A DNA stretch of 38,318 bases, from NCBI GenBank assembly GCA_005222975.1, contig NJBI01000034.1, positions 1-38,318 of the forward strand. The letters run 5' to 3'. The stretch is from Promethearchaeota archaeon Loki_b31. GTDB lineage: Archaea > Asgardarchaeota > Lokiarchaeia > Sigyniarchaeales > SOKP01. Positions 3,409-7,917 of the stretch are shown piece after piece. The notes under the pieces were generated by a model. That model saw nothing but the letters and a program-made list of their open reading frames with translations, did not search any database and was not told the origin of the DNA. A program made the translations under genes and the position numbers. Position 1 is the stretch's first letter. Every line of letters starts with the position of its first letter.

Positions 3409-3762
3409 TTACAACAACAATTTCTTGATATTTCCTAACATATCTTTTCCATATATAATTTGCTTTAATTCACTTAAAAGATTAGAAATAGAGTAAATAC
3501 TTTCATTAACATAAAGCTCCTTATAAGACTCACTTTTGATTTTATCAAAATTTATCTCAAAACTTTTAATCGAAAAACTTTCCTTAGAGTAAGGTTTGAA
3601 AATCACTATACATCGAGGATACATGCTCTTTTCTCTTAGATATACAGCCCATCCTTCAAAAAAATATTTTACCTTGATAGAAAATAAATTTTCCCACTCA
3701 AATAGACTTTTTAAAACTGTACTTACTTCTTTTTGGGTTTTAGAGCAATATTTTGGATCCAT
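3409..3762 (-). CDS. hypothetical protein
   Basis: 117-aa ATG-initiated ORF filling the intergenic space; no recognised motif. Confidence 0.65.
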   Translation of the reverse strand: MDPKYCSKTQKEVSTVLKSLFEWENLFSIKVKYFFEGWAVYLREKSMYPRCIVIFKPYSKESFSIKSFEINFDKIKSESYKELYVNESIYSISNLLSELKQIIYGKDMLGNIKKLLL

Positions 3763-3829
3763 ATAATTAATTAAAGAAATGAATTTAAAAAGGAGTAGTA
3801 AAAATTACATTAATCAAAAGCATACGATT

Positions 3830-6382
3830 TTAACTACTATTATTTTTCCCTTTCTTCTCTTCATTTTTAAAAGTATTGATATAATATTCTAATGATGATT
3901 TATCAGGTTGATATTTTAATATATCCATTATAAGATCGGATTTAGGATTCTTAATATATTCTTCAAGCTTTTTATGTCCGTAATTGTAATTATTCCTAAG
4001 AATCTCTTTATTTTTATCTGCTATTAAGTCCAATCGATCCTTAAGTTTGGGAATATGTGTTGCTGATTTTGCCAAACTTATACAGTCAAAAAAATCTTCT
4101 CTGATTTTTCCTTTATAACCAAAAAAATTTGCAAAACTCACTGGATCTAAAATTTTAACATTTTTTCTAAAAGGAATATTTTCAGGAATGGGGCGTGGTG
4201 AATTTGCATGTGTAGGCATTAACATCAACATCTTATTCCTCCCTTGATAACCTCGTAGACAATGATCTATAGTATAAGTTTCTGAATTCCCAAGGTAATA
4301 GTCTATATTAATGATTTTTATTCTATCATTTTCGTTCCGAAGTAATTGGTTTTCATAGAGTTGTTTGGTTTCAAAAGATAATTCCTTAAATTTTTCATTT
4401 ATATGAATAGTGTTGTCACAATGCTTAAGACCATATTTTTCGTAGAAATCATTAAAACTACTTCTTTCAGTTTTAATATTAGTAAATGGTTCATAAAATG
4501 AGCTGCATCCAATTTCTCTTGTATGTTGCATAAATATTCGCTTATTTAACCAGTGAATATTATCTCCAACTTCATGAGAAATTGAAAGTTCATGAAGAGC
4601 CAATCCCGCTTTTCTAGTAATCTCACTATATCTAATATCATTATATTGCATTGCATTATAGATTTCTTTTTTAATTAAATTATAAGGAGGAGCAATACCT
4701 TCTTTAAAATCATGTTTTTCTTTAAATTCTTTGCTATTAATACATTCCTTTAAACTTTCTGCTAATTTTCCAACTTTTTCCTTATGCGTCAATGGTTCTC
4801 CATTTTCATTAAAATCATAAATGTATCTGACACTTCTATAATGTTTTATGGCTTTTAAGGCCTGATCTCTGCCCAATTCATCAAAAGCATTATTATTTTT
4901 AATACTTTTTTCTAAATTTTGAAGTGAATTCCGTATCACTTGATTGCCAATTCTTAAGGTATCACTAATTTGAATGTATCCGATATTTTGTCCCACTTCC
5001 CTATAAGATACATCCTCTACTCTTTTTCCTAACTTTTCTGCGAGAACATTTCTTAAACTCTCAAAAAGTTCTCTCTCTGGGGCATTTCTAATATTATTTC
5101 GATCGGTATATCCCCTTACCTCCTTGAACTTATTAATAGCCTTTAAGGCAGTTTCCTTGCCTTTTTCACTTAATTCTCTGCCCTCTCTAATTTTTTCTTC
5201 TATTATATTAATAGAATTTAACCTCAACTTGCTATTATTATTTAGAGATGGAGATATTTCCTTATATCCAATATTAAGCCCCAACTCCTTATTAGACACT
5301 TCTTCTGCTCTTTTTCCTAACTTTTCTGCAAGAACATTTCTTAAATTCTCAAAAAGTTCTCTCTCTGGGGCATTCCTATCAATATTTTGATCGGTATATC
5401 CTCTTACCTCCTTGAACTTATTAATAGCCTTTAAGGCAGTTTTGTTGTCCATTTCACTCAATTCTCTGTCATTTCTAATAGTTCTTTCAATTTTGTTAAT
5501 AGAATGTTGCGTCAATCTATAGTGATTTCTTAAAGTACCAGTTATTCCTGTTTTTCCTATGTGTTGTTCTAGTTCTTTATATGACACATCCTCTACTCTT
5601 TTTCCTAACTTTTCTGCGAGATTATTTCTTAAACTCTCGAAAAGCTCTCTCTCTGGGGCACTCCTATCAATATTTTGATCGGTATATCCTCTTACCTCCT
5701 TGAACATATTAATAGCCTTTAAGGCAGTTTGTTTGCCCTTTTCACTTAAAAAAATATCATTTCTTATTGCAGTTTTAATATTTTTTATTGAATTCCGTTT
5801 CAATTTCCTACTATCATTTAAAGTGATGTTAATATTATTATATCCTATATTTTTTCCTAATTTAGTATTACTGATTTGTTTTCCCAACATGCTAGAATAA
5901 ATTTGACGAAGGTTATCGAAGAGTTCTTTCTCTGGTTTAAATACATGTAGTTCAATTTTATTTCTGAGTTTACCTGGTTTAACCTGTGGACATTGGATTT
6001 TATGGTTTGGCTCTTTCTGTATATCTATCTTTCGGGGTTTAATTTTATTCCTGGGCTTACCTGGTTTAAACTGTCGAGGTTCTATTTTATTGATTGGCTC
6101 ACGACCGGGGTCAAATGTAGGGCGTTCAATTTTATTTCTGGGTGGAGTTAGAGGGTTTGATTTTTGACGTTGGATTTTATGTCTTGGTTCTTTCTGTATA
6201 TCTAGCTTTCGGGGTTCAATTTTGTTCTTCGGTTTGTCTCTCGGCTTTTGGCGCGATCCCTCGATTTTTTTATCCTTATAATCAGTTTTATTTTTTTTTG
6301 GCGTGTCGTCTGGTTTTGAAGCGATTTCATCCTTTTCGGCTTTCTCGGTATTAGGTTCCGAATTGGGTGCGTTGAGGTCCAT
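3830..6382 (-). CDS. modular repeat protein: Pro/Lys-rich short repeats, four ~96-aa HTH-like modules, possible C-terminal nuclease domain
   Basis: 850-aa ORF with GGTGTGA SD-like sequence upstream; internal repeats visible at protein and DNA level; function inferred only. Confidence 0.85.
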   Translation of the reverse strand: MDLNAPNSEPNTEKAEKDEIASKPDDTPKKNKTDYKDKKIEGSRQKPRDKPKNKIEPRKLDIQKEPRHKIQRQKSNPLTPPRNKIERPTFDPGREPINKIEPRQFKPGKPRNKIKPRKIDIQKEPNHKIQCPQVKPGKLRNKIELHVFKPEKELFDNLRQIYSSMLGKQISNTKLGKNIGYNNINITLNDSRKLKRNSIKNIKTAIRNDIFLSEKGKQTALKAINMFKEVRGYTDQNIDRSAPERELFESLRNNLAEKLGKRVEDVSYKELEQHIGKTGITGTLRNHYRLTQHSINKIERTIRNDRELSEMDNKTALKAINKFKEVRGYTDQNIDRNAPERELFENLRNVLAEKLGKRAEEVSNKELGLNIGYKEISPSLNNNSKLRLNSINIIEEKIREGRELSEKGKETALKAINKFKEVRGYTDRNNIRNAPERELFESLRNVLAEKLGKRVEDVSYREVGQNIGYIQISDTLRIGNQVIRNSLQNLEKSIKNNNAFDELGRDQALKAIKHYRSVRYIYDFNENGEPLTHKEKVGKLAESLKECINSKEFKEKHDFKEGIAPPYNLIKKEIYNAMQYNDIRYSEITRKAGLALHELSISHEVGDNIHWLNKRIFMQHTREIGCSSFYEPFTNIKTERSSFNDFYEKYGLKHCDNTIHINEKFKELSFETKQLYENQLLRNENDRIKIINIDYYLGNSETYTIDHCLRGYQGRNKMLMLMPTHANSPRPIPENIPFRKNVKILDPVSFANFFGYKGKIREDFFDCISLAKSATHIPKLKDRLDLIADKNKEILRNNYNYGHKKLEEYIKNPKSDLIMDILKYQPDKSSLEYYINTFKNEEKKGKNNSS
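4811..5938 (-). repeat. tandem coding repeat, 4 units, period 288 nt (first unit 279 nt)
   Basis: ctctctctgg anchor at 5071, 5359 and 5647 with a degenerate copy at ~5926; recurring peptides APERELFE.LRN.LAEKLGKR and TALKAINKFKEVRGYTD. Confidence 0.93.
5939..6232 (-). repeat. about seven 14-15-aa P-x-[NH]-K-I-[EQK] repeats
   Basis: PKNKIEPRKLDIQKE / PRHKIQRQKSNPLTP / PRNKIERPTFDPGRE / PINKIEPRQFKPGK / PRNKIKPRKIDIQKE / PNHKIQCPQVKPGK / LRNKIELHVF. Confidence 0.85.
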
Positions 6383-6801
6383 TAGTAATCACACCAGGCT
6401 TTTTTTTTTTAACCTTTTAAAATTTATTAATAAATTTAAAAATTAAAATTATTTAAAGAAAAAATTCAGCGTGAATAAAATTCTATTACTTTTATCACGG
6501 AAAATCAAGAAAACTATACTTAGACTACATAATCCTATTAATATAATTAAATAAATGATGTAAAACTGTGCTGACTCTAAATATCCAATCATTATAATCT
6601 CTTTCGAAAGAAGCTATAAAAACACCTCAATTAAAATTAAAATGATAATTCTTAATTTACCTTCATCGTCAATAATAAAAAGAAAACTAAGGTTAGAAGA
6701 CTTCAAGTCTTTTAGAACCTATTGCGTTCAATCCAGAGTATATCTTAATCTTAAGAATACAATAAAAAAACCCAAACTAATCAATAAAGACAAGATTGGA
6801 T

Positions 6802-7917
6802 TTAAGTTCCATAAGAGATTTCTTTAATATTATAAATATCGCTTGATAATTTATTTCCAATTTTTTTATTAGATATGTTCTTGTTACTAAATGATTGAAC
6901 GGGTGATATATCTTTTCCAAAAATCTGCGGTGATTTAATACCAGTTATAAGGAGCATAACTCTTAAATATCCCTCGTACTCATCGTTTACTCGGGCACCC
7001 CAGATTACCATCGCGTTGTTCACATCCATTTTTTCAGAAATTTTTTTTGCTACAGAATTTGCTTCTGCGAGGGTCATATCGTTTCCTCCACAAATATGAA
7101 TTAAAGCACCCTTTGCGCCGTCAATAGATACATCTAGTAATGGTGAGTTGAGTGCGTCTTCAATAGCCTCTTCCACACGGTTACTTTTATTGCCAGATTC
7201 ACCCACTCCCACAATTGCTACACCTCCCGTACTTAAAATGGTCCTAACATCAGCAAAGTCTAAATTAATTAGTGAAGGTAAAGAAATTGTTTCAGTTATT
7301 CCCTTTACCATCGTTGCTAAAACTTCATCGGCGACGCTAAACGCCTCTATGATCGGTAAATCTGGAGCAATGTCTAAAAGGCGATTATTATCGATTACTA
7401 CTAGTGTATCCGCATATTTCTTTAATTCATTAAGTCCCATTTGAGCTTTTTCTATTCGTCCTATTTCAGTATCAAACGGTAATGTGACTACGCCTACAAC
7501 TATTGCCCCTTCAAGTTTGGCTATTTCAGCTACTATAGGTGCGCTTCCGGTCCCAGTCCCCCCACCTTCTCCACAGGTAATAAAGACTAAATTAGCTTCT
7601 CTTAGTATCTTTGTTAAATCTTCACGTGATTCTTCTGCTGCTGCTCTACCAATGTCTGGATTACCACCTGCACCTAAGCCTCGTGTTAAATTTTTACCTA
7701 TTAACAGTTTTATGTGGGACTCAACGCTTTCTAAATGTTGGAGATCTGTATTTACTGCTACGCATTTTGCTCCCTTTATTCCTATTTTCATTAACCGGTT
7801 AATGGTATTGTTTCCAGCTCCTCCGCATCCAACAATTTTTATATTAGCGTAACCAAAATTTTCGCGAGTTGGTCTGATTACTTCTCTCTTTCGAGCATTT
7901 CTTATTAGAGATTCCAT
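6802..7917 (-). CDS. ftsZ: cell division protein FtsZ
   Basis: GCGGAGNNTINRL, GLGAGGNP, tubulin signature GEGGGTGTG, T7 loop INLDFADVR. Confidence 0.97.
   Translation of the reverse strand: MESLIRNARKREVIRPTRENFGYANIKIVGCGGAGNNTINRLMKIGIKGAKCVAVNTDLQHLESVESHIKLLIGKNLTRGLGAGGNPDIGRAAAEESREDLTKILREANLVFITCGEGGGTGTGSAPIVAEIAKLEGAIVVGVVTLPFDTEIGRIEKAQMGLNELKKYADTLVVIDNNRLLDIAPDLPIIEAFSVADEVLATMVKGITETISLPSLINLDFADVRTILSTGGVAIVGVGESGNKSNRVEEAIEDALNSPLLDVSIDGAKGALIHICGGNDMTLAEANSVAKKISEKMDVNNAMVIWGARVNDEYEGYLRVMLLITGIKSPQIFGKDISPVQSFSNKNISNKKIGNKLSSDIYNIKEISYGT

Follow-up and report, generated by a model that had tools for sequence, protein, structure and literature searches.

An inserted gene at the ftsZ end of an Asgard archaeon encodes a candidate homing-type endonuclease with a modular array

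The ftsZ locus and the inserted segment

P0001 is a gene on contig NJBI01000034.1 of Promethearchaeota archaeon Loki_b31 (assembly GCA_005222975.1; 3.5 Mb, 92% complete, about 30% G+C), of which we analyzed a stretch of 38,318 nucleotides (nt), hereafter the window. It is flanked on one side by ftsZ, on the other by a short open reading frame (ORF), orf117, and its protein product consists of an N-terminal region, an array of four modules, a single helical unit, and a conserved C-terminal domain (Table 1). The frame is as the initial annotation had described it, the quoted peptides are present in its translation, and a Shine–Dalgarno-like GGTG as well as AT-rich TATA-like boxes were found 5′ of the ATG. 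The Asgard origin of the DNA is right, because the named relatives with the same C-terminal domain are metagenome-assembled genomes of Promethearchaeota, Promethearchaeia, and Hermodarchaeota.

The locus can be read across both genes in 24 same-genus genomes; in all of them orf117 directly neighbours ftsZ at a distance of about 50 nt, and the segment of about 3 kb that separates them here is absent; it was found in this genome only, and the 24 empty-site genomes include three with a 97–98% identical Dim2. With both joints mapped, this comparison of synteny bears out the proposal that P0001 is inserted downstream of ftsZ. At the right joint, over positions 6802–6856, the 3′ end of ftsZ (the last ~50 nt) gives way to a diverged sequence with in-frame indels and a new stop codon at 6802–6804. 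The insertion has thereby altered the C-terminal peptide of FtsZ, which reads ...SSDIYNIKEISYGT here and ...SNDIFNIGELAFD in all close relatives, so that the tail ends in ...NIKEISYGT instead of ...NIGELAFD. The FtsZ tail is usually a partner-binding peptide, and the insertion may affect the contacts of FtsZ with division proteins.

Because the ftsZ end at the right joint is diverged, the gene must have come together with a piece of a diverged ftsZ, and the most likely origin is recombination from a lineage that already carried P0001 downstream of ftsZ. Further exchange is suggested by a homologue in another genome, G005 (locus L018, contig G005:C24, positions 366–687): At its N-terminus, its DNA is 88% identical to that of P0001, whereas the C-terminal domains share 32% protein identity. 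This mosaic, in which the N-terminal region is similar and the remainder differs strongly, indicates recent recombination between members of the family. The G005 copy has no counterpart at the syntenic site in this genome. Across the genus, the C-terminal domain was detected in 11 of 36 genomes, at other loci and in some copies with stop codons.

Table 1. Features of the P0001 locus; positions refer to the window, amino acids (aa) to P0001.
Feature	Position	Strand	Remarks
orf117, 117-aa ORF	3409–3762	minus	other side of P0001; NMD3–RIO1–KH/Dim2 gene cluster next to it
Orphaned original ftsZ end	3810–3822	minus	stop codon, D and F codons, and start of Ala codon, at left joint
Foreign segment relative to same-genus genomes	3823–6856		left joint 3822/3823 after ...AAAAGCA; right, near-identity to relatives (96.5%) resumes at ~6827–6856 within ftsZ
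P0001 ORF	3830–6382	minus	850 aa, intact, no internal stop
Conserved C-terminal domain, putative nuclease, aa 598–850	3833–4591	minus	family conservation
Single helical unit, aa 531–597	4592–4792	minus	aligns with ~87-aa tandem repeats of homologues
Module 4, aa 435–530	4793–5080	minus	most divergent module; C-flank not homogenised
Module 3, aa 339–434	5081–5368	minus	module HMM; model with same five helices as module 2
Module 2, aa 243–338	5369–5656	minus	module HMM; modelled as five helices
Module 1, aa 147–242	5657–5944	minus	module HMM and flank comparison
N-terminal region, aa 1–146	5945–6382	minus	basic, Pro-rich, pI 10.1
AT-rich non-coding spacer	6383–6801		P0001 start to new ftsZ stop codon; part of insert
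ftsZ	6802–7917	minus	P0001 lies downstream of it
HMM, hidden Markov model; pI, isoelectric point.

The spacer between P0001 and ftsZ has no Rfam match. Likewise, no family match was obtained for orf117, whose position is kept across the genus at 45–95% identity; it is a real gene without relation to the insertion. Within P0001, the N-terminal region contains about three repeats of 29–30 aa around a [K/R]NKI motif (KNKIEP, RNKIER, RNKIKP, RNKIEL).

The module array

Two approaches support the four modules of ~96 aa with a 288-nt period that had been noticed at the outset: Tandem Repeats Finder reports this period over 4977–5749 (2.7 copies, 82% matches), and an HMM derived from the modules locates all four at aa 150–242, 243–338, 339–434, and 435–530. 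The flanks had been described as nearly identical, which is true for the N-flank (codons 1–24) among modules 2–4, with a DNA identity of 88–92%, and for the C-flank (codons 73–90) among modules 1–3, with about 96–100%, but does not extend across all four modules. Taken together, these near-identical blocks correspond to the three inter-module junctions, and no homogenisation is seen at the outer edges of the array. Synonymous divergence (dS) follows the same pattern, amounting to 0–0.09 in the C-flank among modules 1–3 and to 0.23–0.34 in the N-flank among modules 2–4. In the module centres (codons 25–72) the DNA identity drops to 50–75%, and a Nei–Gojobori analysis found synonymous sites saturated or nearly so in all pairs (dS 0.6 to undefined) at a nonsynonymous divergence (dN) of 0.36–0.60, and hence a dN/dS below 1.

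The simplest reading of these values is that four old, diverged modules had their junctions recently homogenised by gene conversion, which would be the reason why the flanks look conserved. Since the centres are saturated at synonymous sites and their dN/dS lies below 1, there appears to be no accelerated change in the presumed recognition helix, and the centres, previously called hypervariable, are better described as anciently diverged. Moreover, every array position in related four-module proteins retains its own sequence from protein to protein, a pattern that fits position-specific roles and shows no code.

For the fold of the modules we turned to an AlphaFold model of modules 2–3, calculated from a 23-row alignment, which reaches a mean predicted local distance difference test (pLDDT) score of 85. 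It comprises five helices per module (H1, residues 2–17; H2, 26–33; H3, 38–44; H4, 50–62; H5, 68–85), of which H1 and H5 are long, with a short turn between H2 and H3 and an inter-module link of about 10 residues; the core hydrophobics coincide with the conserved columns over 30 modules. The variable 20-mer corresponds to residues 33–52, that is, to the end of H2, the turn, H3, the following loop, and the first residues of H4. In the model, it does sit at the position of a recognition helix, just as the initial annotation had supposed for a base-reading element. This arrangement resembles the Cro/C1 domains of the lambda-repressor type (XRE, Pfam HTH_3) in its five helices, in the H2–turn–H3 element, and in the S-x3-L-x3-[IV]-G motif, the spacing of which equals that of helix 2 in XRE domains.

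The helix-turn-helix (HTH) likeness thus stands at the level of the predicted helices (pLDDT 85), but no HTH family emerged from sequence or profile–profile comparison. A Pfam scan of the whole of P0001 and of 14 single modules returned none, and an hhalign comparison of the module with an XRE profile made from 22 domains of related genomes yielded a probability of 1.3% (P = 0.04) over 12 columns that cover helix 2 only. Lambda-repressor/XRE-type proteins recur in four fold searches, among them C.AhdI, C.BclI, lambda cI, HigA, PlcR, and Stl, and never rise above the helical-bundle background: The best matches are unrelated helical bundles with a Z-score equal to that of the HTH proteins. Foldseek searches against PDB and BFVD gave no match at an E-value of 0.001 or better, profiles of the module, of the C-terminal domain, and of class A (see below) yielded nothing meaningful against PDB, and single-domain PDB searches were empty. 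We also looked for an enrichment of specificity-determining positions in helix 3 across related arrays; in one class the relationship proved too close, and in the other the signals were scattered and lay mostly at the start of helix 4. From the model, the HTH reading of the modules is plausible, not proven.

With arrays of zinc fingers or transcription activator-like effectors (TALEs), the P0001 array shares a tandem arrangement of modules whose differences are greatest where they would face the nucleic acid. In contrast to those systems, there is no evidence of a per-module code here, the modules are few, and their variation is ancient rather than diversifying. A code of the TALE or zinc-finger kind with one subsite per module is pure inference.

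Two family matches of P0001 were discarded. The Pfam match to RhaA (E = 4e-7) is a false positive summed over repeats, in which three short junction stretches fall on the same 55 residues of a profile 417 positions long; the public precomputed annotation labels the protein PF06134 (L-rhamnose isomerase), which is spurious, one helix region being matched by three repeats of the junction peptide (4799–5935). A PADLOC match to a 'Type I specificity subunit' (E = 2e-4) spans about 40 residues only and was judged meaningless.

The C-terminal domain and the module fusions

P0001 had been called an orphan, which holds insofar as no family in Pfam, NCBIfam, PADLOC, or PHROG explains any part of it, but does not hold for its components. 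The C-terminal domain is common to about 100 representatives of 50%-identity clusters, which come from Asgard genomes wherever the taxonomy could be checked, and most of these proteins carry DUF7677-like repeat arrays in place of the modules. The module (92–96 aa) occurs in about 10 metagenomic proteins and in 12 of 161 same-class genomes, all of one family, in 1–5 tandem copies.

Conservation within the C-terminal family was counted over 56 diverse sequences: G606 and Y712 are invariant (100%), followed by H610 and D656 (98%), Q713 (96%), E631 (93%), and D694 (91% Asp, the rest Glu). The acidic motifs FYE, CDN, and IDYY that had been singled out from the sequence thus fall on the most conserved columns of the family, with E631, D656, and D694. 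Position 614 is Glu in 93% of the family and Lys in P0001; Lys is present there in 3 of the 56 members. In order, the domain presents a helix with H...E, a strand ending in FYE, the CDN motif, an insert of about 38 residues, IDY[YF], and a helix with GYQ. This order is compatible with a PD-(D/E)XK core of the RecB/Cas4 type, in that acidic residues occur in the expected succession, their surroundings (FYE, CDN, IDY) are hydrophobic and strand-like, a helix motif with YQ comes next, and a sister architecture, class A, has the canonical GHPD...DYK...QxxxY set. It differs from that core in the missing third-motif Lys, in the ~38 residues between the second and third motifs, and in having no sequence or profile link to it. 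A Pfam scan of the 56 family members revealed no known nuclease, and hhalign of the family against the class A nuclease domain was not significant. We consider it probable that the domain is a nuclease of some kind, and slightly favor an assignment to the PD-(D/E)XK group.

Across these proteins, the module array is joined to C-terminal domains of three kinds. The first, class A (P0063, P0069, P0104, P0105, G095), is a RecB-like domain with an invariant E...GHPD...DYKPS...QxxxY set and repeated sub-threshold matches to PDDEXK_1 at the same profile positions. In class B (P0106, P0107, G063), a nuclease-type domain, preceded in the G063 protein by a DUF4379 treble-clef zinc finger, is homologous to homing endonucleases of phages, with matches to phrog_559 ('HNH endonuclease', E = 2e-25), phrog_9084 ('homing endonuclease', E = 1.3e-9), and phrog_7140 ('intron encoded nuclease', E = 2.4e-8). 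The third type is that of P0001, whose C-terminal domain recurs with modules in two other genera, namely in G083, where it follows a zinc finger and three modules, and in G104, where the copy is frameshifted. These fusions support a role of the modules in nuclease targeting. For the proposed fusion of a binder with a nuclease this means that the module family is indeed repeatedly fused to nuclease domains, but the C-terminal domain of P0001 itself has no profile link to one.

Further arrays were seen in the course of these searches. Class A genes with four modules and a RecB-like domain (L086 5640–8202, and the contig of P0109) lie in convergent orientation to a gene for a PCMT/GCD14-type methyltransferase in two metagenome samples, and on one of these contigs the gene is apparently split into ORFs of 331 and 315 aa. 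Two long ORFs of 2010 and 1593 aa without Pfam match (L107, G146:C23, 293–6322; L108, G086:C117, 1–4779) contain 2–3 module copies near their C-terminal third. In a same-genus genome, L103 (G023:C208, 3513–5060) encodes five modules in a frame that stops shortly after entering a class B-type nuclease region, and is probably a truncated or frameshifted copy.

The unit between module 4 and the C-terminal domain aligns by BLAST to the repeats of the homologue P0003 (E 1e-4 to 6e-4), with a match that begins at aa 528, inside the tail of module 4. These repeats of ~87 aa match DUF7677 at 34.9 bits (cut-off 26) and, weakly, HNH_repeat, the homing endonuclease associated repeat (HEAR; E = 0.009); P0001 itself has no Pfam match to DUF7677 or HNH_repeat. 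P0003 has a single helical element at its N-terminus that could be aligned with module 4, but this match was dropped, as the module HMM gave no confirmation.

A close parallel to this architecture is offered by the homing endonucleases with nuclease-associated modular DNA-binding domains (NUMODs; I-TevI, I-HmuI, and I-Bth0305I of the EDxHD family), which likewise combine small, HTH-like, often tandem DNA-binding modules with interchangeable nuclease domains and are encoded by mobile genes in or beside conserved genes. In I-Bth0305I, a Vsr-like nuclease is joined to two NUMOD2 motifs (PMC3239194). The modules described here differ in that they are large (92–96 aa, five helices), occur in 1–5 copies, and have to date been seen in a single Asgard family only; no NUMOD family is among the Pfam matches up to E = 10 for P0001 or E = 1 for single modules, and the nuclease-like domain of P0001 belongs to none of the described homing endonuclease families. 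Literature searches on the repeat name and on tandem-HTH nucleases turned up nothing specific.

A proposed homing-type endonuclease and its alternatives

We give about an even chance to the reading that P0001 forms a one-gene mobile element and that its product is a free-standing endonuclease of the homing type, from an uncharacterised Asgard family with a new modular binding domain, rather than a programmable reader of DNA. The basic N-terminus would be disordered, the four HTH-like five-helix modules and the one DUF7677/HEAR-like unit would bind a long DNA site, and the C-terminal domain would cut the DNA, with E631, D656, and D694 as probable metal ligands of an active site resembling that of PD-(D/E)XK enzymes. 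The gene would have spread by recombination from a relative with the gene downstream of ftsZ, a stretch of the donor ftsZ 3′ end being co-converted, and gene conversion within the array would keep the three junction blocks alike while the old, diverged centres persist. As regards the marks of a homing gene, we found both a presence/absence polymorphism at a conserved site and an altered flank; with respect to a recognised nuclease family, the C-terminal domain of P0001 gave no match, and class B alone matches homing PHROGs. The earlier interpretation is right in outline as to an HTH-like array, a probable nuclease, and an inserted gene.

A number of observations weigh against a homing endonuclease. 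There is no target-site duplication and no intron or intein context, and one insertion event only was mapped exactly. Class A relatives hold a conserved position beside a PCMT-type methyltransferase gene on two metagenome contigs and are not obviously mobile. The assignment of the modules to HTH domains is without statistical support, with neither sequence profiles nor profile–profile comparison giving an HTH family. The C-terminal domain matches no nuclease family in Pfam, NCBIfam, PADLOC, PHROGs, the PDB profile search, or hhalign; the Lys of the (D/E)xK motif is absent, the +2 position being Tyr or Phe; and no usable fold was obtained, a single-sequence AlphaFold model of aa 535–850 reaching a pLDDT of 37. 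Finally, P0001 may be inactive, because it has Lys at 614.

This last point leads to a different account, in which P0001 is a domesticated or decaying DNA-binding protein whose modules still bind DNA while its C-terminal domain no longer cuts. An ORF that is still intact and has expression signals would suit such a protein as well as the exchanged residue does; every other near-invariant residue is kept, however, and the presence of Lys in other members of the family suggests that it may be tolerated, so that we judge a non-catalytic protein unlikely. Equally, the patchy, strain-specific distribution with degraded copies and the combination of a modular binder with a putative nuclease could be expected of a horizontally acquired stand-alone defence nuclease, restriction-like in character, whose array targets foreign DNA and whose patchiness reflects the turnover of defence genes rather than homing. 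Against this stand the lack of a convincing PADLOC match and of any methyltransferase, immunity gene, or other defence gene beside P0001, and a single-gene insert with a converted ftsZ flank better fits spread driven by recombination; a defence role therefore seems improbable to us.

The third alternative concerns the nature of the domains themselves: The modules might be generic helical-bundle repeats for protein or RNA binding, their HTH likeness a common helical arrangement, and the C-terminal domain a non-nuclease enzyme. The equal Z-scores of unrelated bundles and the non-significant comparison with XRE domains point in this direction, as does the ESM Atlas model of the C-terminal part, which matches Rossmann-like folds only (template modelling score ~0.3). 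Generic repeats would, however, sit oddly with a module that is found fused to three domains of nuclease type and to a treble-clef zinc finger, with the basic character of modules 1–3 (pI 9.3–10.1), and with a motif spacing equal to that of XRE helix 2, and we regard this explanation as quite unlikely. The same low standing must be given to a far-reaching variant of the nuclease reading, according to which the modules are portable DNA-reading units that each recognise their own subsite via helix 3 and the next loop, so that arrays of 1–5 direct different nuclease domains to long sites. If it were true, modular subsite reading would be an archaeal, HTH-based counterpart of zinc-finger and TALE nucleases, with specificity re-assorted module by module; and if each module could bind DNA on its own, the family would offer candidates for the engineering of DNA targeting.

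In phages and organelles, nuclease genes of the free-standing homing type are familiar, as are their DNA-binding modules; for Asgard archaea, after a brief literature search, we know of no description of either. P0001 introduces two new families that Pfam does not cover, one of nuclease-associated modules and the other of conserved C-terminal domains, and exemplifies how gene conversion may make old repeats resemble 'hypervariable cassettes'. Because the insertion in the ftsZ end is cleanly mapped and its empty-site allele is available in close relatives, the homing hypothesis is directly testable in vitro.

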